Source of the DNA: Burkholderiaceae bacterium
GTDB taxonomy: Bacteria > Pseudomonadota > Gammaproteobacteria > Burkholderiales > Burkholderiaceae_B
DNA: 64,000 bases
Assembly: GCA_965656505.1 (NCBI GenBank)
Contig: CBFHKV010000002.1
Location: 21,989 to 85,988 of the forward strand
Reading direction: 5' to 3'
The notes below the pieces were generated by a model. That model searched no databases. It saw only the letters and a list, made by a program, of their open reading frames with translations, and was not told the DNA's origin. The position numbers and the translations under genes are program-made. Below, piece by piece: positions 4,512 to 51,822 of the stretch (positions are counted from its first letter, which is position 1; each line of letters starts with the position of its first letter).

Positions 4512-5309
4512 TCACCGAGTTGCCGAAATAATCCCGCCGTCCACCACAATGGTTTGGGCGGTGATGTAGCGACTTTCGTCGGCGGCTAGAAATAAAACGG
4601 TATTGGCCACATCCCAGGCGTCACCCATGTGGCCCATGGGCACTTGTTGGTGCCGGTGAGCAACAAAACCCTCGTAGTCACCCTTTGCGTATTTGTTAGC
4701 CAGTCGTTCAACCAAGGGGGTAAACATCAAACCGGGCGCCACACAATTCAAGCGAATCCCTCGTTCGGCATAGATCACAGCAGTGGTTTTGGTGAATTGC
4801 ATGAGCGCGGCTTTGCCTGCGGCGTAGCCAACCTGCGGCTTACCAATATAGCGATAGCCCGCTACCGAAGAGATATTGACGACTGAGCCAGCGCCTTGGT
4901 TTTCCATCTGAGGGAGAACGTATTTGCAGGTTAAAAAAGCCGACGTGACGTTGACGTCTAATTGATCGCCCCAGGTTTGTTCGCTCATTTCGACCGGACC
5001 GCCTGGCTCAGAACGACCGACATTATTGACCAAAATATCAATACGACCGTATTTCTCAAGGCAGGCGTCAACCATTTGTTTGACTGCTTCAGGGTCGGTG
5101 ACGTTGGTTTGCATCACATGCGCTTGACCACCCTCGGCCTCAATCAGCGATTGAGTCGCTTGGGCCGCTTCAAGGCTCAAGTCAACGCCAAATACTTTGG
5201 CGCCTTGTCGGGCTAACAGCACGGCAATGGCTTTGCCATTACCCCAACCCTCTTCTAATGTGCCACAGCCGGTGACCAAGGCAACCTTGCCATCGAGTCT
5301 CAACATCAC
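4512..5309 (-). CDS. SDR-family oxidoreductase
   Basis: 265 aa with a Rossmann motif (ALVTGCG..G.G) and a YxxxK catalytic motif (YAAGKAAL). Confidence 0.85.
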   Translation of the reverse strand: MMLRLDGKVALVTGCGTLEEGWGNGKAIAVLLARQGAKVFGVDLSLEAAQATQSLIEAEGGQAHVMQTNVTDPEAVKQMVDACLEKYGRIDILVNNVGRSEPGGPVEMSEQTWGDQLDVNVTSAFLTCKYVLPQMENQGAGSVVNISSVAGYRYIGKPQVGYAAGKAALMQFTKTTAVIYAERGIRLNCVAPGLMFTPLVERLANKYAKGDYEGFVAHRHQQVPMGHMGDAWDVANTVLFLAADESRYITAQTIVVDGGIISATR

Positions 5310-41240: not shown

Positions 41241-42116
41241 TTACAGCGATTGCACCACGGCGGCTTCGAACTGACCCGCACGATAGTCGCGCAGAGTCTG
41301 TTGGATCTGCTCCTCCGTGTTCATCACAAATGGCCCGTACTGTGCGATTGGTTCGCCTAATGGCTTGCCGGCCACAACCAAGCACTTGGATGCCACGGTG
41401 GTTTCAATCCGCACGAGATCGGCGCCATTATCAGTCAGAATGGCCATATGGCGATCTGGAACAACTTGTCCTTCAATTATCGTTTCACCGCGATAGGTGT
41501 AGGTGAATGCATGATGACCCGCGGGGATGGTCACATCGATTTGGCTATTGGCTGGCAAGTGCACATCAAGCACCAAAGGTTCCGTGTCAGGCCGTTCTAC
41601 AGCGCCTGTGGTTTGCTCGCTTTGCCCAGCAATTACCCGAACCGTGACGCCCTCTGACGTGGTGTATTGGGGGATGGTGTCAGGGGTGATGTCGCGATAA
41701 CTGGGTTTGATCATCTTGTTCTTTGCGGGCAAGTTCAACCACAACTGAAATCCCTCCATCAAACCATCTTCTTGTTCTGGCAACTCAGAATGGATTAAAC
41801 CGCTACCGGCCGTCATCCACTGCACGCCACCGGGACCTAGCAAGCCTTCATTGCCTGCACTATCACGGTGGCGCATGCGCCCAGCTATCATGTAAGTGAC
41901 TGTTTCAAAGCCGCGGTGAGGGTGATTGGGAAAGCCGCCGATGTAATCCTCGGGGTTGTCGTTGCGGAAAGCATCCAACATCAAAAATGGGTCGAGTCGC
42001 TGCTGTAGCGATTGGGTCAAGACCCGTGTTAGTTTGACGCCAGCACCATCTGAAGTTTGAACGCCCTGAACCAAGTTTTCTACAGAGCGCGAGCGTTGTG
42101 TTGAAGGGGTGTCCAT
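41241..42116 (-). CDS. Pirin-family protein
   Basis: HPHRGFETVTYM...G...QWMTAGSGLIHSE is the pirin cupin motif. The ATG at 42116 follows an AGGAG RBS. Confidence 0.85.
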   Translation of the reverse strand: MDTPSTQRSRSVENLVQGVQTSDGAGVKLTRVLTQSLQQRLDPFLMLDAFRNDNPEDYIGGFPNHPHRGFETVTYMIAGRMRHRDSAGNEGLLGPGGVQWMTAGSGLIHSELPEQEDGLMEGFQLWLNLPAKNKMIKPSYRDITPDTIPQYTTSEGVTVRVIAGQSEQTTGAVERPDTEPLVLDVHLPANSQIDVTIPAGHHAFTYTYRGETIIEGQVVPDRHMAILTDNGADLVRIETTVASKCLVVAGKPLGEPIAQYGPFVMNTEEQIQQTLRDYRAGQFEAAVVQSL

Positions 42117-42247
42117 GGTGGTCTCCTGTGTCGATCTGATCGACAGCATCCTGATTGTTTAAATTTTGAAGCCTAAAAGACTTAAAGCTTAAGACTTAAG
42201 GCTCGCAGTCGTCACACTTAGATATCAAGCATAGTCTTCAAGCCCAA

Positions 42248-42850
42248 TTACTGACCGAACAAGCTATCGATTTGTTCATGCGCTTCTTGCATCGCTTTAT
42301 CTGCGGCTTCAGGACCCATGGCAAAGCCCTCTGCGTAGATGAATTCGACATCGGTCATGCCCATGAAACCGAGAATTAATTTCAAGTAAGGCACCTGTGT
42401 GTCATTGGGTGTATCGCGATAAATACCGCCACGAGCCAAAGCCACATAGACCTTCTTGCCAGTTAATAGCCCAACAGGTCCTAGATCGGTGTAACGGAAT
42501 GTCACGCCAGCTTTTGCAATAGCGTCAAACCAAGATTTCAGTTGCACTGGAATACCAAAGTTATACATCGGCACGCCCAGCACAATAATATCGCTAGCTT
42601 GTACTTCGGCAATTAGAGCATCGTCATGCGACATGCGCTCTTTCTGTTCAGGCGTGCGCTCTTCGGATGGAGTAAATAGGGCATTTAATGCTGGTTCATC
42701 CAAAATGGGGTGTGGATCGATGGCCATGTCGCGCAGTTTAAAAACTGCGTCTGGGTGTTGGCTTTTGAGGCGTTCAGTCACCAAATTAGCCACAGTGGTG
42801 GAGTTCGCGCCTATTGAGCGAGCGCTGGTATTTAGTTGAAGAATTTGCAT
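42248..42850 (-). CDS. azoR: FMN-dependent NADH-azoreductase
   Basis: 200 aa with [11 protein letters not shown]..., ...[12 protein letters not shown]... and an AzoR-like length. Confidence 0.8.
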
Positions 42851-42912
42851 GATTTGGTCCGTTGTTAAATGAACGACTGAATGAATGAATTAGTGATAGT
42901 TTATTAGACCAA

Positions 42913-42947
42913 ATTAATCCGATAAACCCACTAAAATGGGTATTAAT
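42913..42947. promoter_or_regulatory. Candidate LysR operator in the azoR/lysR divergent region
   Basis: Dyad ATTAAT-N7-ACCCA-ctaaaa-TGGGT-ATTAAT sits between divergent genes and is compatible with a T-N11-A type site. This is untested. Confidence 0.35.
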
Positions 42948-42974
42948 GTTCCATAATTGAAACAATAAGGAAGC

Positions 42975-43928
42975 TTGGCTTTGTCCAAAAAACCAACTCA
43001 AACCCCTAAGGCCTCGCATTGGGTGAGCGGGCAGGCCGACGACTTGGCCCTATTTGCCCATTTGATTGACGCAGGAAGTTTCTCCTTGGCAGCTGAGCGG
43101 GTCGGCATACCCAAGTCAACCTTGTCGCGTCGCTTGTCCGCCCTAGAAAACCGTCTGGGTCAGCGCTTGGTTACTCGTAGCACGCGACGTCTGCAGATCA
43201 CTGACTTCGGCGAGCGAATGCTAGAGCATGCACGCCGGCTAGTCGACGAAGTATCGGCGGCCGCGGCACTCGCGCAGCATGAACAGGTGCAACCTCAAGG
43301 GTTATTAAAGGTTTCTATCCCGCCCGATTTAACCCAAGTGGACTTATCCACCCTGTTGATTCAGTATGCGACACGCTATCCGCTTGTTAGAGTCGAGCTC
43401 GATTTGTCGCCACGGCGAGTCGACTTATTGGCAGAAAGGTATGACTTGGTGGTGAGAATTGCCGACCACCTGCCTGACGACACGACCTTAGTGGCGACAA
43501 AGCTGTGTGACATGGGTATTCACTTGTATGCCAGCCCAGCCTATTTGCGCCGTTTTGGCGCGCCTGAAGAACCAAATGATTTGACGATCCATAGTTGTCT
43601 GCCATTGATCAGTAGTCGAGGTGAGGCGGTGCCATGGCAGCTGCACGGTCCAGGTGGCAGTTGGGAAGCGCTGCTACCCGGGCGGTTATCTTCGAATTCG
43701 CCCGCCACTCAGCGCGCACTGGCCGCCAGCGGCATGGGGGTTGTGGCCCTACCAGATGTCTTGGCCAGAGACTACATGGCGCAAGGTCAGTTGTCCCGCG
43801 TATTGCCGCAGTGGTCACTGCCATCTATGACTGTTTGGTGCGTGACGCCAGGGCGGCGTCTATTACCGTTACGTACGCGCGCTTTTATGGATCTTTTGCG
43901 TCAGAGCATGGATCAGCAAAAGCCTTGA
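42975..43928 (+). CDS. LysR-family transcriptional regulator
   Basis: 317 aa with an N-terminal HTH (FAHLIDAGSFSLAAERVGIPKSTLSRRLSALE) and a LysR substrate-binding domain. The start is a TTG. Confidence 0.85.
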   Translation: MALSKKPTQTPKASHWVSGQADDLALFAHLIDAGSFSLAAERVGIPKSTLSRRLSALENRLGQRLVTRSTRRLQITDFGERMLEHARRLVDEVSAAAALAQHEQVQPQGLLKVSIPPDLTQVDLSTLLIQYATRYPLVRVELDLSPRRVDLLAERYDLVVRIADHLPDDTTLVATKLCDMGIHLYASPAYLRRFGAPEEPNDLTIHSCLPLISSRGEAVPWQLHGPGGSWEALLPGRLSSNSPATQRALAASGMGVVALPDVLARDYMAQGQLSRVLPQWSLPSMTVWCVTPGRRLLPLRTRAFMDLLRQSMDQQKP

Positions 43929-43941
43929 AGCGAACCATGAC

Positions 43942-46296
43942 TCACGGCTTGGATGGTTTTGCTGGCTTGGGTGATCGATTGTTTAACGGTCCGAGTACCT
44001 CTTGAACGGTTTGTCGGCCATCCTCAATCAGTTGCAGTAGTGTTCCGCGTGAGAAATCATAGGCCTTAGGGGCTGGCGTATTTGGGCTGGTTTGTCGCGT
44101 AATACGGAAATTTACATTGGGATTCGCCTCACCCATCAACTGCATGTAAAGCGGTTCACGCGACAAACGACGGGCGTTTTCTTCGGGTAACTGAGCCATC
44201 AAATCAGTCACTAACTGGTGGTAGTTGGCCAGAAGATCTTGCTGTGTATCATCGTGCTTCATTCGGTCTGAAAAGATGATTTCTTCGCGTCTGGCGCTGA
44301 CTTCCATCAAAGACTCCGGCAAGTTGTCGCGCTGACCAGGAAATAAGTCGATTAGATAAACGTGTTTGCCGGTTGCTCCAACGCGGTTAAGAGCGGGTTG
44401 CAGAGGTGAGTTACTGACAATGCCGGCGTCCCAGTAGTGACGTCCATCGATCGACACCCACTCAAACGCGGGTGGCAGGCTACCGCTGGCCATAATGTGA
44501 TCAACCGTCAAGTCGTCTAAGTAGCTGTCGAATAAAACCACCTCACTGCTCTGTACATCCACTGCGGTAACCATCAGCCGAATAGGGCTGGTTCTGAGGG
44601 ACGAAAAGTCAACATATTTGGACAGTGTGGCGCGTGCCTCTGAAAAGTCATACAAACTAGGCCACTCGGATGGCGATTGACTGAAATGTTGCCAAGGATT
44701 TAACCAGCGTGGTTTGAAAAAACCGGGCACACCAAACATAGCGGCCTGTTGGCTAGCCCATAAACGTCTTGACGATTCATTCCCCGTGAACGGTGAGTTG
44801 GTGGCGAGTTCCTGCCAGAAAGCGGTGAGTGCCTGCGCTGGATTGTCAGGGTTGCCGGCCACGATGGCACCGTTAAATGCACCTATGGAGACCCCTGCAA
44901 TCACGTCTGGGATGATTTCGCGATCTTGCAATGCTTCAATGGCACCGCACTCAAAAGCGCCAAAAGCACCGCCGCCCTGAAGCACGTACAACACTTGTGC
45001 AGGCATGTCCGACAGCGCAAAACTTGGGTCGCTCAATTTGGACTTTACCCGGGCAACACTGACGTGATTTCGAATGAGATCTTCGGCAGCTCTGGCGTTA
45101 CCTGACTTATCTCCCATCGAGAAAAAAGCACAGGGCACCTGACCATCGAGGTAAATCGTTTCAAACTCACCACTTTTTAAGGAACCACGGTCTATGCGTT
45201 CGCAGTTTTCTGCGGGAAAGCCGACTAAATTAAAACTCTGATTAAAAATGTGGCTGTAAAAATAACTCACGGCCGTAAAGGGCTCGTGTCTGCCGAGCAT
45301 ATTGCGGGCTGCTAAGCGACCTTGCTTGATCGCGTTATCCCAATGTTCGACCCTGAAATAGGTCTTAAATAATGGATGATAGACATTGGCCACATCGCCG
45401 GCCGCATAGACAGACGGGTCACTGGTTTGTAAATACTCATCAACCAATAGACCGTCGCGACAATCGATATCTGACGATCGTAAAAATTCAGTACGTGGCG
45501 TCACGCCGGCACCAATCACCACCATATCGCACTCGAGCACCTCGCCATTGGCCGTTCGGACAGTGTTTGCCCGATTTGTGCCTTCGATCGCTTGGGGTGT
45601 GTCGCCAACTAGGGTTCGCACCGAATGCTGATTTAAGACTTCCTCGACATGACGAGAAATATTGTCGGCATAGAGTTTGTAGAGCAACTCGCGCGTTTCG
45701 ATGAGGGTGACTGCCACGCCTTGTTGCGCCAAAAGGCTCACCACCTCCACGCCGATGAAGCCGCCGCCAATGACAACCGCAGTTTTGGCGTGCTTAGCCT
45801 CATTGCGGATGGCCAGAGCGTCGTCGAACGTACGCAAATAATGCACGCCCGGCAAATCGGTGCCCGGTATGCTCAAAGGTGTTGGGGATGCGCCAGTGGC
45901 GATGAGGGCTTTGTCGTATCTGATACGTTCACCTGAGCTTAGCTCAGCGAACTTGTGTTTGATGTCTAAAGTCGTCACTTGCGCTGAGCGTCGAGTCTCG
46001 ATATCGAGTTCTTTATACGTTGCGGGATTTAAAACCAAATGCGGTGAGTTCCGCTGTTTGATGCGCATCGTTGATTTTGAAAGTGGTGGGCGGTGATACG
46101 GCAGATAAGACTCTTCGCCGATGATTAAAATTCGTCCTTGTGCGCCTTCTTGTCTTAGGGTTTGGGCCGCATTGGCCGAGGCCAGGCCGCTACCTATCAA
46201 TAAAAACGCCACTTCAGTCACTTTGTTCGATCGAGAAGACGCAGCCCGCTTTTTTGAGGTGCTAGATGATTGGCGTGTAGGGTTATGACTTGCCAT
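43942..46296 (-). CDS. Fusion protein: ferredoxin/flavodoxin-reductase-type FAD/NAD(P)H oxidoreductase (N-terminal) plus patatin-like phospholipase with a DUF3734-type tail (C-terminal)
   Basis: One uninterrupted ORF of 784 aa from the ATG at 46296. N-terminal half: LLIGSGLASANAA, VVIGGGFIGVEVV, YAAGDVA, EHWDNAIKQG. C-terminal half: GGGAFGAFECG (oxyanion), GVSIG (nucleophile), WDAGIVSNSP (Asp), AYDFSRGTLLQLIEDG. Confidence 0.8.
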   Translation of the reverse strand: MASHNPTRQSSSTSKKRAASSRSNKVTEVAFLLIGSGLASANAAQTLRQEGAQGRILIIGEESYLPYHRPPLSKSTMRIKQRNSPHLVLNPATYKELDIETRRSAQVTTLDIKHKFAELSSGERIRYDKALIATGASPTPLSIPGTDLPGVHYLRTFDDALAIRNEAKHAKTAVVIGGGFIGVEVVSLLAQQGVAVTLIETRELLYKLYADNISRHVEEVLNQHSVRTLVGDTPQAIEGTNRANTVRTANGEVLECDMVVIGAGVTPRTEFLRSSDIDCRDGLLVDEYLQTSDPSVYAAGDVANVYHPLFKTYFRVEHWDNAIKQGRLAARNMLGRHEPFTAVSYFYSHIFNQSFNLVGFPAENCERIDRGSLKSGEFETIYLDGQVPCAFFSMGDKSGNARAAEDLIRNHVSVARVKSKLSDPSFALSDMPAQVLYVLQGGGAFGAFECGAIEALQDREIIPDVIAGVSIGAFNGAIVAGNPDNPAQALTAFWQELATNSPFTGNESSRRLWASQQAAMFGVPGFFKPRWLNPWQHFSQSPSEWPSLYDFSEARATLSKYVDFSSLRTSPIRLMVTAVDVQSSEVVLFDSYLDDLTVDHIMASGSLPPAFEWVSIDGRHYWDAGIVSNSPLQPALNRVGATGKHVYLIDLFPGQRDNLPESLMEVSARREEIIFSDRMKHDDTQQDLLANYHQLVTDLMAQLPEENARRLSREPLYMQLMGEANPNVNFRITRQTSPNTPAPKAYDFSRGTLLQLIEDGRQTVQEVLGPLNNRSPKPAKPSKP

Positions 46297-46802
46297 CAAA
46301 ACACCGACATCGAAAGGCCATTGGCAAAAAGCTCACCGAGCTTGCGGCATGATTCGCGTTGTGCCTCTGACAGTTGTTTGGGGGCCAAGATGGCCTCTGG
46401 TGTTTGTGCTTGGACGTTGATGATGAGTGCCTCTTGAATCGGTTTGAGTCGCCACCCTGTGACGATACGGTCAATTTGTCGTGCCGCGCTATGACCATCA
46501 CTGCCAGCGCAAATCATTTGGACATAAGGTCGTCCTTCGATCTGACCTAGAACCGGGTAATACGTGCGATCAAAAAAATCCTTCATCAGTCCGCCCATGC
46601 TACCGAGGTTCTCTGGCGTGGCAAACACGTAGCCGTCTGATTGCAGCACATCATTGGCGTTCGCATTGGGTGCCCCTTTTAAAACCACCTCGATGCCATC
46701 AACTGATTGACAGGCCTGCACCAATGCCTGCGCCATCTGTGCCGTACCCCCCGTCACTGAGTGGTAAACCACGAGCAATTGTTTGGGGGGCAGGGATTGC
46801 AT
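46296..46802 (-). CDS. Flavodoxin-fold protein
   Basis: 168 aa with LLVVYHSVTGGTAQMA and ...YVFATPENLGSMGGLMKDFFDR. Its stop overlaps the start of the fusion gene (TGATG), and it has a GGAG RBS. Confidence 0.7.
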   Translation of the reverse strand: MQSLPPKQLLVVYHSVTGGTAQMAQALVQACQSVDGIEVVLKGAPNANANDVLQSDGYVFATPENLGSMGGLMKDFFDRTYYPVLGQIEGRPYVQMICAGSDGHSAARQIDRIVTGWRLKPIQEALIINVQAQTPEAILAPKQLSEAQRESCRKLGELFANGLSMSVF

Positions 46803-46869
46803 GAGGCTCCGGAGCTAGTATTTGAAGCAGGTGGGGTTTTAAAGACAAGCCCCACCTTAAGCTGACCAT

Positions 46870-48756
46870 TCAGAGTACCAAAGGGGTGACGCGATAAGCA
46901 ATCCAAGCGGCCAAGTAAGCCATCGCAAACAGATATCCTGCCGCGATCAAAGGTATTTGCCAGCCGCCAGTCTCCCGTTTGATAGTGGCGAGCGTGGCAA
47001 AACACTGGGGTGCAAATACGTACCAAGCCAACATCGCCATGCCGGTCGCCAAACTCCACTGCTGAGCCAAGATTGGAATCAATGAGGTTTCGGTGATTTC
47101 CCCGACCGCGGACAAAGCGTAGACAGTGCCGAGTGCGCTCACAGCCACTTCTCGTGCAGCCATGCCTGGAATCAAGGCAATGGCGATTTGCCAATTGAAA
47201 CCAATAGGTTCTAACACCACGGCCAACCATCGTCCCACGGTACCAGCAAAACTGTATTCAATAGGCGCACCGATGGCGTCAATCGGTGGCGCAGGAAAAC
47301 TCGCTAAAAACCAAAGCGCGACAGTCATGGTCAAAATCACCCCGCCCACGCGATGAATAAAGATGGCGGCTCGCTGCCACAAACCAATGGCGATATTACG
47401 TGGATTGGGTATTCGATAGGTGGGCAACTCCATCATCAGAGGTCTGGCAAGGCGCCCAGACTTGGTCAAAGTTTTAAGTGCCCACGCCACAGCCAGCGCA
47501 CCAGCGATGCCCGCCAAATAGAGGCCAAACATAACCAGACCTTGCAGTTGCCACCCGCCTGCTACGGTTTGTCGTGGGATAAATGCGCTAATTAACAAGG
47601 TGTAGACGGGCAAACGGGCCGAGCATGTCATGAGCGGCGCGATCATGATGGTGACCAAGCGGTCGCGGGTGTTAGAGATGGTGCGAGCTGCAATGATGCC
47701 TGGAATGGCGCAGGCAAAGCTAGACAGTAAGGGAATGAAAGAGCGTCCGGATAATCCGACGCTGCCCATAAGTCGATCGAGCAGGTAAGCCGCACGTGGC
47801 AGGTAGCCCGACTGTTCTAGCATCAAGATAAAGAAAAAGAGAATCAAGATTTGCGGCAGAAACACCACCACGCCGCCAACACCAGCGATAAGACCGTCAA
47901 TCAAAAGACTGCTAAACCAACTATTGGGTAAAAAGTCACCGACCGCTTCGCCAATGAATTCAAACCCCATTTCGATCCAATCCATTGGCGCTTCCGCCCA
48001 ACTGAACATCACTTGAAAGATGAGAAATAAAACCGCCAAAAGAATGACGGGTCCGGCTAAAGGATTGAGCAACACGCGGTCAATCTGTTCGCTTTTAAGA
48101 TCTGGCACGATTTGATCTAAGCCGAGTGCCACCAAAATCTCTCGTACGCGCTCGTGATCTTGGAGGGCATCGGCGGGCTCTTGTGGAGCGGGTGTCTGAG
48201 GCATAGCCCTCGAGCGGTCTTCTACGATTGACTCAATGAGCGCGCGCAATGGTGCGTCGCCTGCCGCTTTGACGGCAACAGTTGCAACCACTGGTACACC
48301 TAGGGCAAGCGCGAGGGCATTTGTGTCAACGTTGATTCCTCTTGATTTCGCTTCATCAGACATATTTAAGGCCACAACGCATGGCAGCCCGAGTCGTTGA
48401 ACCCCTAGGACTAATCGCAAGCTACGCCGCAAATTGGTCGCGTCAACCACGCAAACCACCACATCAGGTTTTTTTTCACCGGTTGCCTGTCCATTCAAGA
48501 CTTTGCAAGTGACGCGCTCATCTAGCGATCTCGGATAAAGACTATAGGTGCCCGGTAAATCTAAGACGCGGACAGCTTTACCGTTCGAGGTTTCGAGTCT
48601 GCCTTCTTTGCGTTCGACGGTAACCCCGGCGTAATTGGCAACCTTTTGCCGGCTACCGGTTAAGCGATTAAAAAGAGCGGTCTTGCCGCAGTTGGGATTG
48701 CCAACCAGCGCAAACAGCAGGCCGGTAGCGTGTAGGTGGATGATGTTTTGTTTCAC
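46870..48756 (-). CDS. feoB: Ferrous iron transporter FeoB
   Basis: It has an N-terminal G-domain (LVGNPNCGKTALFN, DLPGTYSL) and a polytopic membrane domain. I chose the GTG at 48756 because it has a GAGGA RBS at 7 nt. An alternative ATG lies at 48777. Confidence 0.9.
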   Translation of the reverse strand: MKQNIIHLHATGLLFALVGNPNCGKTALFNRLTGSRQKVANYAGVTVERKEGRLETSNGKAVRVLDLPGTYSLYPRSLDERVTCKVLNGQATGEKKPDVVVCVVDATNLRRSLRLVLGVQRLGLPCVVALNMSDEAKSRGINVDTNALALALGVPVVATVAVKAAGDAPLRALIESIVEDRSRAMPQTPAPQEPADALQDHERVREILVALGLDQIVPDLKSEQIDRVLLNPLAGPVILLAVLFLIFQVMFSWAEAPMDWIEMGFEFIGEAVGDFLPNSWFSSLLIDGLIAGVGGVVVFLPQILILFFFILMLEQSGYLPRAAYLLDRLMGSVGLSGRSFIPLLSSFACAIPGIIAARTISNTRDRLVTIMIAPLMTCSARLPVYTLLISAFIPRQTVAGGWQLQGLVMFGLYLAGIAGALAVAWALKTLTKSGRLARPLMMELPTYRIPNPRNIAIGLWQRAAIFIHRVGGVILTMTVALWFLASFPAPPIDAIGAPIEYSFAGTVGRWLAVVLEPIGFNWQIAIALIPGMAAREVAVSALGTVYALSAVGEITETSLIPILAQQWSLATGMAMLAWYVFAPQCFATLATIKRETGGWQIPLIAAGYLFAMAYLAAWIAYRVTPLVL

Positions 48757-48766
48757 GATCTCATCC

Positions 48767-49048
48767 TCAAACCACATGCACGAGTTCGGCTTCACCACGC
48801 CGAAGGGCGTAAGTGCTCGAACCAACTCGCACAACGATTGGGTCTTGCCCCAGGGGTGCTTTGCGTTGCACGATCACGGCTTCACCTGGTAAAAATCCCA
48901 GGTCTTGGAGTTGCTGAGAGCATTCCGTTAAAGAGTGTTGTTCGCTTGGGGATTTTCTGTGGCGGTCATTTGGGTGATCGCTCGAGTGCTCACTTAGGTG
49001 GTGAATCCGCAATAGCGTATTGAGCGGGGCGGCGGTAAGAGAAAGCAT
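48767..49048 (-). CDS. feoA: FeoA-family protein with a His-rich insertion
   Basis: 93 aa with the LGFLPGEAVIVQRKAPLGQDPIVVRVGSSTYALRRGEAELV SH3-like FeoA core. It lies immediately upstream of feoB. Confidence 0.8.
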   Translation of the reverse strand: MLSLTAAPLNTLLRIHHLSEHSSDHPNDRHRKSPSEQHSLTECSQQLQDLGFLPGEAVIVQRKAPLGQDPIVVRVGSSTYALRRGEAELVHVV

Positions 49049-49057
49049 GATTTCCTT

Positions 49058-49084
49058 AAATAGTAATAATTCTCATTACTATTT
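49058..49084 (-). promoter_or_regulatory. Fur-box-like dyad upstream of feoA
   Basis: AAATAGTAATAATTCTCATTACTATTT reads on the feo strand as TAATGAGAATTATTAC, against the consensus GATAATGATAATCATTATC. It sits 10-36 nt upstream of the feoA start. Confidence 0.6.
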
Positions 49085-49256: not shown

Positions 49257-49742
49257 ATGGCACTGCAACTGGATCATGACGGTATCGAAGTGGTTGGTTT
49301 GGGGATGCATTTTGATGAGCTCCCAGTCGGTAGGAAATTCAAAACTGTTGGCCGTACGATTACCGAAGCGGATCTGGTGGCCTTCGTGAATGCCACGGGT
49401 TTTACCGAAGTGCTTTTTACCGATACCGAGTTTTTGCGTGAAACGTCAGACATCAAAGGGCGGTTGGTGCCGGGTGCCCTGGTGTATTCCATGGCCGAAG
49501 GGCTATTGATGCAAGCCACCATGCAGCACACTGGTTTTGCTTTTCTTGAAATGACTCTTAAGGTTCATGCGCCGACGCTTGTGGGACAGACCATTCATGT
49601 GTTGTGTGAGGTCACCGAGGCGCGTCCAAGCGGCAGCCGGCCTGACCGTGGGCTTGTGCGCACCCACAACACGGTATTGAACGAAAAGGGCGAGGTTTTG
49701 TTGACCTACACACCCTTACGGTTTGTGAAAAAAGTGGTGTAA
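49257..49742 (+). CDS. MaoC-like (R-specific enoyl-CoA hydratase fold) dehydratase
   Basis: 161 aa with hot-dog fold features (ITEADLVAFVNATGF...). Confidence 0.7.
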   Translation: MALQLDHDGIEVVGLGMHFDELPVGRKFKTVGRTITEADLVAFVNATGFTEVLFTDTEFLRETSDIKGRLVPGALVYSMAEGLLMQATMQHTGFAFLEMTLKVHAPTLVGQTIHVLCEVTEARPSGSRPDRGLVRTHNTVLNEKGEVLLTYTPLRFVKKVV

Positions 49743-49962
49743 GTTGTCATTTGTAATTGATTGTCGGTAATGCGAGTTGCGGCTTCGCCATCTGGATCTG
49801 GTTACACAACATGAATACACAGACCATAAGGGAAAAAGTAACTTGCATTTGTAACTTACCCGCAATTCTCAGGTTTTGCCGCATTTTCCCTGTGTTTTCC
49901 CTTGTCTTATGCCCGCAGCCTATAGGAAAATGCATATTTTGGTGTGTATTTTTCTTAGGGGA

Positions 49963-51822
49963 ATGGTAGTGTCACGGAAAACCGTAGATCAAAAAAAGCG
50001 TCAATTCCTTGCAGGTTCGGCGAGTTTGACAGCCGCGTCTGTTGCCGGTTTGGTAGGATCTTCACGGCCAACACAAGCCGCGCAATCAGCATCTATGGCT
50101 GGTTATCATGCCGCCACGGTCCGCCGAGTCAGACCGGGTGAGCCAGGCTGGCCGTCAGCGAATGAATGGAAGGCATTGGCCGACTCATTGCAAGGCAAGC
50201 TTTTTGAAGTGCCGGATCCGTTTGCCAAATGCAGTGAGGGGCCTAGCGCCTGCGAACAAGTCCTGAAAGACTTTGAAAACCCTTATTTCATCCAAGACAC
50301 GCCGGGAGCGACACAAAGCAGCGGCTGGGTCGACGCGTGGACGAGTCGTGTTAGTCAATATGCGGCCGAGGTGGAAACCGCAGAAGATGTCTCCAAGGCG
50401 GTTCGTTTTGCGCGTCAGCACAATTTGCGGTTGGTGGTGAAGGGCGGTGCGCACAGCTACCTGGGCCAGTCAAATGCACCGGATTCGTTCCTGATATGGA
50501 CCAAGAAACTTAACGCCATCCAAATGCATGACAAGTTCCAACCCCAAGGCAGTGAAGGTGAGCCGTTTGAGGCCGTCTCAGTTCAGGGTGGTGCAATCTG
50601 GGTTGATGTTTACGACAAGGCGGTGGTGAAAGGCAAACGCTATGTCCAAGGTGGTGGTTGTACGACGGTGGGTGTCGGCGGCCATCTGCAAACCGGTGGT
50701 TTTGGTAGTTTTTCTAAGCGCTTTGGTATTGCGGCCAGTGGCATTGTTGAGATGGAAGTCGTGCTAGCTGACGGCAGCATCGTGGTGGCAAATGAAAACG
50801 TCCATTCGGATCTCTTTTGGGCCATGCGTGGCGCGGGCGCAGCGTTCGGCATCATCACGCGGGCCACGATGAAGCTACACCCTTTACCCAAGACGTTCGG
50901 TTTTACTGGTTTAAAAGTAAAGGCCAAAAACGATGCCGCTTACACGGCATTGGTTGAGCATTTCTTGCGGTTTTATCGTGACCAGTTGATGAATCCGCAT
51001 TGGGGTGAGCACGCTGGTTTCAATGGCGAGAACGAGTTAGAAATCGCGCTTGTCAGTCAGGATTTGACTGAGCAAGAAGTGGCCGATATTTGGCAACCCT
51101 TTGTTGATTGGGTCCAAGCGCGTGACGAGGACTTTAAACTCGTCTCGCCCTTGCGACTGGTGGTTATGCCTGCTGAGCATTGGTGGGACGTCGAGTACCG
51201 CAAAAAGAATCTTCCTAATTCAATTGTTGTCGACAATAGACCAAACGCAAAGCCTGGCGCTTACTGGTGGTCCGGCAGCACGCGGGAGGTCAGTATATAC
51301 ATCGCGGGCTATGAGTCTGGCTGGTTACATGAGCGTCTATTGCAAGATGACAACTTATCTACATTAGCCATGACCCTTGTGGCCGCATCAAGAGTCAGGG
51401 GTTTTGAAATCCACTTCAACAAAGGTTTGGCTGGGGCGCCACCTGAAGTTGCACGTCAAGGCAGCGAGATACCGATCAATCCAGTCGTACAACACGCGTT
51501 TGGTCTGATCATTATTGCCGGTGGTGAACTCAATGTGCACGAAGGTCTACGGGGTCATGAACCCAACAAGGCACAAGCTCGCGCTGAATCAGCAAAAATT
51601 ACTCAGGCCATGGATTTGATCCGGGCCATTGCCCCTGAGGCCGGAGCCTATTGCTCTGAAATGAGTTATTTCGCAAGCAATTGGCAAACAGATGCCTGGG
51701 GTAACAACTATCCGAGACTTTTGACGCTGAAACAAAAATATGACCCAACAGGTCTTTTTTTGGCGCATCATTACGTAGGAAGTGAGCAGTGGAGCCGCGA
51801 CGGCTTCGAAAAGCAGGGCTAG
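49963..51822 (+). CDS. Tat-exported FAD-linked oxidase (PCMH-type FAD domain plus BBE-like C-terminus)
   Basis: It has a twin-Arg-like signal (QKKRQFLAGSASLTAASVAG), an FAD-binding segment (RLVVKGGAHSY...GGGCTTVGVGGHLQTGGFG) and a C-terminal YDPTGLF BBE motif. The start could be the ATG at 49963 or the GTG at 49969. Confidence 0.75.
   Translation: MVVSRKTVDQKKRQFLAGSASLTAASVAGLVGSSRPTQAAQSASMAGYHAATVRRVRPGEPGWPSANEWKALADSLQGKLFEVPDPFAKCSEGPSACEQVLKDFENPYFIQDTPGATQSSGWVDAWTSRVSQYAAEVETAEDVSKAVRFARQHNLRLVVKGGAHSYLGQSNAPDSFLIWTKKLNAIQMHDKFQPQGSEGEPFEAVSVQGGAIWVDVYDKAVVKGKRYVQGGGCTTVGVGGHLQTGGFGSFSKRFGIAASGIVEMEVVLADGSIVVANENVHSDLFWAMRGAGAAFGIITRATMKLHPLPKTFGFTGLKVKAKNDAAYTALVEHFLRFYRDQLMNPHWGEHAGFNGENELEIALVSQDLTEQEVADIWQPFVDWVQARDEDFKLVSPLRLVVMPAEHWWDVEYRKKNLPNSIVVDNRPNAKPGAYWWSGSTREVSIYIAGYESGWLHERLLQDDNLSTLAMTLVAASRVRGFEIHFNKGLAGAPPEVARQGSEIPINPVVQHAFGLIIIAGGELNVHEGLRGHEPNKAQARAESAKITQAMDLIRAIAPEAGAYCSEMSYFASNWQTDAWGNNYPRLLTLKQKYDPTGLFLAHHYVGSEQWSRDGFEKQG

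Follow-up and report, generated by a model that had tools for sequence, protein, structure and literature searches.

A ferredoxin-reductase-like flavoenzyme fused to a patatin/DUF3734 hydrolase in Burkholderiaceae and other bacteria: a possible redox-coupled esterase with a genomic link to 3-hydroxybutyrate metabolism

A 64,000-nucleotide stretch of DNA from a Burkholderiaceae bacterium (assembly GCA_965656505.1, contig CBFHKV010000002.1; the whole stretch is referred to here as the window) carries a gene for a 784-residue protein in which a ferredoxin-reductase-like flavoenzyme is joined to a patatin/DUF3734 hydrolase. The fusion was found to be genuine and shared by many bacteria, and the stand-alone relatives of its hydrolase half were found to be encoded repeatedly beside BdhA, a 3-hydroxybutyrate dehydrogenase. 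We propose, tentatively and with somewhat less than even confidence in the proposal as a whole, that the fusion is a redox-coupled esterase linked to poly-3-hydroxybutyrate (PHB); that it links the breakdown of a storage polyester to redox state is more likely than that it acts as a generic phospholipase. When bacteria draw on their PHB is a long-standing question, and the case for control by the ratio of reduced to oxidized nicotinamide adenine dinucleotide (NADH/NAD+) has been built mostly on studies of enzyme inhibition. If the proposal is true, an NADH-binding flavin module and a PatD-type esterase in one polypeptide would provide a direct molecular link between redox state and PHB use.

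The fusion gene occupies positions 43942-46296 of the minus strand and runs as a single open frame from the ATG at 46296 to the stop codon at 43942-43944, which bears out what an earlier reading of the letters (the sequence-only reading) had described as an uninterrupted open reading frame (ORF). A TTG codon lying one codon 5' of this ATG is an alternative start and would give a 785-residue product. All of the motifs quoted in that reading were located at defined residues: the flavin adenine dinucleotide (FAD) fold motif LLIGSGLASANAA at 32-44, the NAD fold motif VVIGGGFIGVEVV at 174-186, YAAGDVA at 297-303, EHWDNAIKQG at 317-326, GGGAFGAFECG at 441-451, GVSIG at 468-472, WDAGIVSNSP at 622-631 and the DUF3734-type tail motif AYDFSRGTLLQLIEDG at 745-760. 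Pfam hidden Markov models (HMMs), run to check the domain borders, detected both the reductase and the patatin/DUF3734 halves (Table 1), and the patatin catalytic set comprises the oxyanion loop G441-G-G-x-x-G446, the nucleophile elbow G468-V-S470-I-G472 and D623-A-G625. An AlphaFold2 (AF2) model of the whole 784-residue chain had a predicted local distance difference test score (pLDDT) of 82 and a predicted template modelling score (pTM) of 0.79, the latter value suggesting that the domains may be held in a fixed mutual arrangement; the DUF3734 region of the model is helical and was predicted with lower confidence. No membrane anchor or signal peptide was found in the fusion sequence.

When 5.8 billion proteins were searched, no fewer than 120 clusters had the same Pfam set and 45-97% identity to the fusion. 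The homologues are 745-790 residues long, save for a few shorter, apparently truncated entries of 593-715 residues. Approximately 50 loci with the fusion were collected from Beta-, Alpha-, Gamma- and Deltaproteobacteria, Ignavibacteriales and Dadabacteria, and the complete genomes that carry it include those of Orrella marina, Azoarcus sp. DN11 and Paludibacterium yongneupense. A scan of GTDB gave a full-length copy in 35 species, the carriers being Alcaligenaceae, Burkholderiaceae and Comamonadaceae genera, Propionivibrio, Sideroxydans, Pseudolabrys, Sphingobium, Novosphingobium, Acidocella, Aliidongia, Ectopseudomonas oleovorans, Smithella, Ignavibacteriales and Dadabacteria. The closest match, with 96% identity and an identical gene order, was in an Orrella sp. 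metagenome-assembled genome (MAG), from which the window is taken to derive from an Orrella-like betaproteobacterium. The linker between the reductase and patatin halves is gap-free and conserved, with L421, L428, P432 and Q434 nearly invariant. An artefact, whether a frameshift, a misassembly or a read-through joining two genes, is ruled out, its probability being practically nil, because the same architecture occurs in independent isolates, metagenomes and complete genomes; the check for a frameshift or assembly join came out negative across all of these clusters and loci. The sharing of this architecture is far beyond chance.

In an alignment of 120 fusions, the catalytic residues of the patatin half (oxyanion loop, GxSxG and DxG) were kept in every sequence, while G35, G37, A39, G177, G178, E184, G300, D301 and E317-H-W-D320 were invariant or nearly so and D747, F748 and S749 of the DUF3734 domain were invariant. 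With its FAD, NAD, oxyanion, GxSxG and DxG positions conserved in this way, the protein looks catalytically intact in both modules, each of which appears to be under selection. The sequence-only reading knew of no characterized protein with this architecture, and none was found in the literature and databases searched; the literature searched made no mention of DUF3734, nor of a patatin fused to such a reductase. The architecture is uncharacterized, yet the family is not a rare one and its sequences are not new; database entries name its members 'NTE family protein' or 'FAD-dependent oxidoreductase'. Neither the latter name nor 'phospholipase' is by itself a safe annotation for the fusion. Inheritance of the gene is vertical and its surroundings are of the housekeeping kind, as at locus L091 (loci are given here by their L numbers), where it adjoins dnaA-dnaN-gyrB.

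The relatives of the hydrolase half were collected by an exhaustive profile-free search with fusion residues 429-784, which gave 282 representatives at E ≤ 1e-30. Among the best 150 of these 282, about ten to a dozen were fusions or fragments of fusions and the rest were stand-alone proteins of 330-430 residues, in keeping with the earlier statement that patatin/DUF3734 proteins normally stand alone. The C-terminal half is 27-39% identical to the stand-alone patatin plus DUF3734 proteins. The only solved relative found by sequence was PlpD (5fqu). PlpD, ExoU, VipD and the CBASS patatins share with the fusion the Ser-Asp dyad and the glycine-rich oxyanion loop, but the similarity to PlpD is distant (E 1.6e-8), that to ExoU, VipD and the CBASS patatins is not significant, and these proteins are secreted or effector phospholipases with other accessory domains.

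The genomic surroundings of the hydrolase were studied with 80 metagenomic loci, fetched by a profile of the stand-alone family, in which all six-frame segments were scored with a BdhA HMM. The scores from this local model were bimodal, with true BdhA proteins at 220 bits or more and generic short-chain dehydrogenases/reductases (SDRs) at 176 bits or less. Of the 69 loci with a stand-alone patatin/DUF3734 gene (L104-L172), 27 had BdhA next to it, as did 20 of the 35 with enough flanking sequence, usually 75-320 bp downstream and on the same strand (examples are L108 4001-5965 and L106 4001-5926). A neighbour-joining tree of 49 fusion proteins defines clade A, to which the protein of the window belongs, and clade B, with 35 loci. 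BdhA was adjacent at five of the 35 clade-B loci, on the same strand and in both gene orders; these are L017 (Dadabacteria), L025 (an alphaproteobacterium), L026 (Sideroxydans), L031 (Acidocella) and L084 (Azoarcus sp. DN11). The same six-frame HMM scoring found no BdhA beside the clade-A fusions (0/14 loci) or beside reductase-only controls (0/44 loci). Seven BdhA neighbours were scanned with NCBIfam and all seven scored above the curated BdhA cut-offs. Acetoacetate-type CoA transferases were encoded near the fusion in L082 and L030 and near a stand-alone patatin/DUF3734 gene in L124, and a class III polyhydroxyalkanoate (PHA) synthase (PhaE/PhaC) was encoded 1.5 kb from the stand-alone member in L090.

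The stand-alone patatin/DUF3734 gene together with bdhA looks like a widespread bdhA-patD-type operon. As a passage of PMC4549902 citing Aurass 2009 describes it, a Legionella bdhA-patD mutant was unable to break down PHB. Since the BdhA linkage echoes this Legionella operon, the patatin/DUF3734 family is best read as an esterase of 3-hydroxybutyrate/PHB mobilization and not as a generic phospholipase. The term 'phospholipase', used for the hydrolase in the sequence-only reading, is probably the wrong substrate class, given that the conserved genomic partner of the family is BdhA. The patatin-like PatD of Legionella pneumophila, so far as it is described in that source, is encoded next to bdhA, like the 20 stand-alone genes and five fusion genes counted above; PatD, however, has no fused reductase, and the fusion of the window has no bdhA neighbour. 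The Haloferax protein PhaZh1 is described in a passage of PMC6520949, citing Liu 2015, as a patatin-like PHA depolymerase. According to the same passage, the Haloferax mediterranei enzyme has a patatin fold and acts on native polyhydroxyalkanoate and not on phospholipid, similar to the hydrolase role proposed here, but it is archaeal, granule-associated and stand-alone. The BdhA link is the most useful result of the analysis: where the fusion was simply unexplained, there is now a hypothesis on redox control of storage-polyester use that can be put to the test, and the link also gives a functional handle for DUF3734 and for thousands of proteins labelled only 'patatin-like phospholipase'.

The N-terminal half was compared with solved structures by Foldseek. 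The ferredoxin reductase ArR, putidaredoxin reductase (PdR), TodA and BphA4 were matched with TM-scores (target) of 0.85-0.93 over 368-416 columns; monodehydroascorbate reductase (MDHAR) fell in the same set with up to 432 columns, and the range becomes 0.78-0.93 when apoptosis-inducing factor (AIF) is included. The top 50 Foldseek matches for the whole fusion model were reductase matches only and are therefore uninformative on the patatin half. The class I ferredoxin-NAD+ reductases (ArR 3lxd, PdR 1q1r, TodA 3ef6 and BphA4 2gqw) are 27-31% identical to the fusion and have in common with it the three-domain FAD/NAD/C-terminal fold and the RPPLSK, GxGxxG and EHWD motifs; they are, however, stand-alone proteins of about 400 residues encoded with a [2Fe-2S] ferredoxin and an oxygenase, whereas the fusion continues into a hydrolase. 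AIF and MDHAR have the same fold as the reductase half at an identity of only 23-26%, and AIF is a precedent for an NADH-sensing switch in this fold, rather than a classical reductase. The NCBIfam equivalog models (AndAa, HcaD and others) were missed widely, the best scores being 242.6 against a cut-off of 650 bits and 230.1 against 450 bits. A glutamate at the end of the second NAD strand (E200) was present in 90 of the 120 fusions and, by analogy with E175 of BphA4, suggests a preference of the reductase half for NADH.

The usual electron acceptors of reductases such as PdR, BphA4, TodA and ArR are [2Fe-2S] ferredoxins or rubredoxin and not flavodoxin. The sequence-only reading had named flavodoxin among the usual acceptors of the class, and what is established for these top structural matches speaks against it. 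No [2Fe-2S] ferredoxin, rubredoxin or oxygenase gene was found in the neighbourhood of the fusion in the window, and ferredoxin, rubredoxin and oxygenase were absent from the commonest neighbour families at 35 fusion loci. The fusions are marked by two enriched cysteines. C256, which lies in the NAD domain (45529-45531), was present in 120/120 fusions compared with 6/43 stand-alone reductases, and C450, by the oxyanion loop in F-E-C-G (44947-44949), was present in 103/120 fusions compared with 7/45 stand-alone patatins; the two could form a redox-sensitive pair. A stand-alone ferredoxin-reductase paralogue of about 410 residues is encoded 2.4 kb 3' of the fusion in Ectopseudomonas oleovorans (L023 9709-10938) and Variovorax sp. 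WDL1 (L038 4816-6048).

In the window, the fusion gene overlaps the end of the gene for a 168-residue protein, and the TGATG overlap of stop and start codons pointed out earlier was confirmed (Table 1). The 168-residue protein scored below the Pfam cut-off for Flavodoxin_1 (19 versus 25 bits), below that of the NCBIfam flavodoxin model TIGR01753 (25.9 versus 123 bits) and below those of the NCBIfam WrbA models (35.6 versus 141 and 28.7 versus 132.5 bits). Its AF2 model had a pLDDT of 93.7, the top Foldseek matches being 2ARK, WrbA, PnpB and true flavodoxins, and the best sequence match in the PDB was also 2ARK (E 2.4e-15). A phosphate-loop-like stretch, S15-V-T-G-G-T20, is present, in which T17 is invariant. 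Like the Aquifex aeolicus protein 2ARK (TM-score 0.79) and WrbA (0.75-0.79), the 168-residue protein has the flavodoxin fold with a loop of the T-G-x-T type, and in structure it falls between 2ARK, WrbA and true flavodoxins; it is shorter than the WrbA NAD(P)H:quinone oxidoreductases. 'Flavodoxin-fold flavin mononucleotide (FMN) protein' is the accurate description, while the label of an electron-carrier 'flavodoxin' is stricter than the cut-offs allow; of the earlier assignment, the fold stands, but the protein is not a canonical flavodoxin. The family of the 168-residue protein is very large (about 8000 matches), and most members are encoded away from the fusion, as in Variovorax sp. HW608.

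A combined tblastn and family HMM search found the partner gene in only three of 35 species-representative fusion loci. In targeted look-ups, the partner lay 5' of fusions that are 49-59% identical to that of the window and have unlike flanks (L081, L082, L088, L092 and L086). All of the partner-bearing loci fell in one clade, clade A, with bootstrap support of 100/100, and the partner was present at 9 of the 13 assessable clade-A loci, the deepest branches included, and at none of the 35 loci outside. It is gone from one clade-A subgroup (L002, L006, L032 and L087), which has lost the gene. A TGATG or TAATG overlap joined the two genes at six of the nine partner loci, including L001, L086, L004, L005 and L088, and gaps of 19-53 nt separated them in L081, L082 and L092. 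Because the pair was kept at these nine loci despite changing flanks, and overlaps at six of them, the flavoprotein and fusion genes of clade A form an inherited and probably translationally coupled unit. A clade-specific operon of reductase and FMN protein is thereby identified. The flavoprotein as a universal partner of the fusion is excluded by the three in 35 species loci and by its restriction to one clade. The two-gene module of the sequence-only reading, with its conserved neighbour, holds within clade A, apart from the four loci that lack the partner; it is not a property of the family, because the partner is absent at all 35 loci outside the clade. A small DUF2805/TIGR03643 gene stands in place of the flavoprotein gene in L087 (3642-3929) and also in L006 and L032, and in L087 a gene for a YciA-like acyl-CoA thioesterase lies 3' of the fusion.

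Under the proposal of a PHB-linked, redox-coupled esterase, the fusion would be a cytoplasmic bifunctional flavoenzyme, that is, an NADH-dependent FAD reductase combined with a Ser-Asp PatD-like esterase. The N-terminal module would bind NADH and reduce its own FAD, electrons presumably flowing in that direction, and the C-terminal module would cleave 3-hydroxybutyrate esters, either the polymer of the PHB granule or oligomers of it, and not bulk phospholipid. The two halves may be coupled allosterically, the reductase tying the esterase to the NADH/NAD+ pool either by sensing redox state and gating the esterase accordingly or through local re-oxidation of NADH. In clade A, electrons derived from NADH might pass to the co-translated 168-residue FMN protein and on to a further acceptor. 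A more specific form of the proposal is a redox switch at the protein level, in which NADH occupancy or the redox state of the FAD would toggle the esterase allosterically, with the possible participation of C256 and C450, so that hydrolysis would proceed only at a low NADH/NAD+ ratio and the FMN protein would be the electron outlet that resets the sensor; this form we regard as unlikely.

Several observations weigh against the proposed link to PHB. Around the fusion, neither the window nor any other clade-A locus yielded a gene for BdhA, PHA synthase or phasin, and the sole BdhA-like match of the window, at 4512-5309, is a generic SDR. A BdhA neighbour is present at about 10% of the fusion loci compared with 57% of the stand-alone loci. 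Rhodoferax, Polaromonas and like genera also have stand-alone members. Because BdhA is seldom kept beside the fusion and stand-alone members occur in the same genera, the fusion may be a paralogue with a diverged role. Moreover, the LysR/azoreductase-like/pirin context of clade A would fit a role in quinone metabolism or redox stress equally well, and Legionella PatD is only a putative member of the DUF3734 family.

The clade-A context is the starting point for an alternative, which we consider doubtful, in which the fusion is a redox-stress enzyme of membrane lipids. The hydrolase would be a phospholipase A that removes oxidized acyl chains, while at the membrane the reductase, resembling AIF and FSP1, would act with the WrbA-like protein to reduce quinones or lipid radicals; bacteria would thus have an equivalent of an iPLA2-type lipase paired with an FSP1-type reductase. 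Genes for a LysR regulator, an FMN-dependent NADH-azoreductase-like protein and pirin do travel with the clade-A pair, WrbA and PnpB, both quinone reductases, are among the structural neighbours of the FMN protein, AIF and MDHAR are among those of the reductase half, and the enrichment of C256 and C450 in the fusions would also suit such a role. However, the LysR gene is divergent from the azoreductase-like and pirin genes and convergent with the fusion, and it therefore more likely controls the former. The whole context is missing in L081, L088 and all of clade B, the partner of the esterase across its family is BdhA and not a stress gene, and the lack of a membrane anchor or signal peptide noted above does not favour an enzyme working at the membrane.

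The co-translation of the FMN protein with the reductase would suit a split diflavin reductase, similar to CysJ or P450 reductase, that feeds a separate acceptor and in which the patatin/DUF3734 part is mainly a docking or regulatory element. The acceptors proposed are a sulfite reductase haemoprotein, ferric iron that Feo would then take up, and a membrane desaturase or hydroxylase. A CysI-type operon with no CysJ-like gene in the region shown lies divergently 5' in L082 and L092, and feoAB lies directly 5' in the window, L001, L004, L005 and L086. Each of these acceptors, however, looks like local synteny, because they vary by subclade and are missing elsewhere; most members of the fusion family lack the FMN partner, and the invariance of the patatin Ser, Asp and oxyanion loop (120/120) argues against a purely structural role. 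This explanation is considered quite improbable. A far less credible suggestion is that of an anti-phage or abortive-infection effector, a patatin phospholipase triggered by an NAD(H)-sensing domain after the manner of the CBASS patatin effectors. It could draw on PADLOC matches to phospholipase effector models (E 9e-6 and 9e-5), but these are weak and reflect the shared patatin fold only. No cyclase, sensor or other defence genes were found in the fusion neighbourhoods examined, and vertical inheritance, the housekeeping contexts such as that in L091 and the family partnership with BdhA also count against it; with weak matches and no neighbouring defence genes, the defence-system reading was rejected.

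Table 1. Features of the fusion locus in the window and of the encoded domains.
Feature	Position	Strand	Basis and remarks
Pirin gene	41241-42149	minus	Domain search; context, not shown as part of a system
FMN-dependent NADH-azoreductase-like gene	42248-42850	minus	Domain search; not shown as part of a system
LysR-type regulator gene	42975-43928	plus	Pfam; convergent with the fusion gene, divergent from the azoreductase-like and pirin genes
DUF3734 domain of the fusion (residues 673-768)	43993-44280	minus	Pfam E 1.9e-7, 31.8 bits versus cut-off 22
Patatin domain of the fusion (residues 438-636)	44389-44985	minus	Pfam E 1.4e-28, 100.9 bits versus cut-off 27.7
Reductase_C domain of the fusion (residues 345-430)	45007-45264	minus	Pfam E 8e-4, below cut-off; fold confirmed by Foldseek
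Pyr_redox_2 domain of the fusion, FAD and NAD(H) Rossmann folds (residues 33-326)	45319-46200	minus	Pfam E 1.9e-63
TGATG stop/start overlap; TGA of the flavoprotein gene shares its A with the fusion ATG	46294-46298	minus	Read from sequence
Gene for the 168-residue flavodoxin-fold FMN protein (FMN_red/WrbA-like)	46296-46802	minus	Pfam FMN_red, 31.1 bits versus 24
feoA-feoB ferrous iron transporter genes	46870-49048	minus	Domain search; context only; 67 nt 5' of the flavoprotein gene

The LysR, azoreductase-like and pirin genes of the window (41241-43928) make up a typical quinone/electrophile-stress unit. The LysR gene was found in the same position in L001, L004, L005, L086, L082 and L092, while the azoreductase-like and pirin genes lie together beside the pair in L001 and L003-L005 and pirin also in L092. 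The order of feoAB and the pair, kept at the four loci named above, was not kept in L081, L082, L088 and L092. The flavoprotein/fusion pair would be iron-responsive if it were transcribed together with feoAB. The region 5' of feoA contained no Fur box, even with up to three mismatches to the E. coli consensus allowed. It does contain a Fur-box-like, AT-rich inverted repeat with 7-bp arms (TAGTAAT-N7-ATTACTA; 49061-49081, minus strand), which shares bases with the -10 hexamer of the predicted promoter TTGACT-17-GAGAAT. The 67-nt gap between feoB and the flavoprotein gene contains a hairpin, GGTGGGG...CCCCACC (46830-46856, minus strand), which has a 7-bp stem and a 13-nt loop but lacks a U-tract; it might serve as an attenuator or an RNA processing site, or have no role. 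When the surroundings of the operon were scanned for promoters and terminators, shuffled sequence gave counts at least as high.

A Pfam survey of two genes on each side at 35 fusion loci showed no enriched family beyond local synteny, some bdhA genes being hidden in this survey by spurious ORFs on the opposite strand. Divergent from feoA in the window is a gene with a MaoC-like (R)-hydratase fold (49257-49742), which adjoins a gene for a 648-residue FAD_binding_4/BBE oxidase (49876-51822); MaoC-like genes are also present 5' of the pair in L081 and L086. The CysI-type sulfite reductase haemoprotein operon that stands divergently 5' of the FMN-protein/fusion pair (L082 1570-4954 and L092 1-2849) consists of NIR_SIR, DUF934 and a sirohaem-related methylase. 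In a Pseudolabrys MAG (L014 5968-6858), a separate gene for a 296-residue RssA-like patatin lies directly 5' of the fusion on the same strand.

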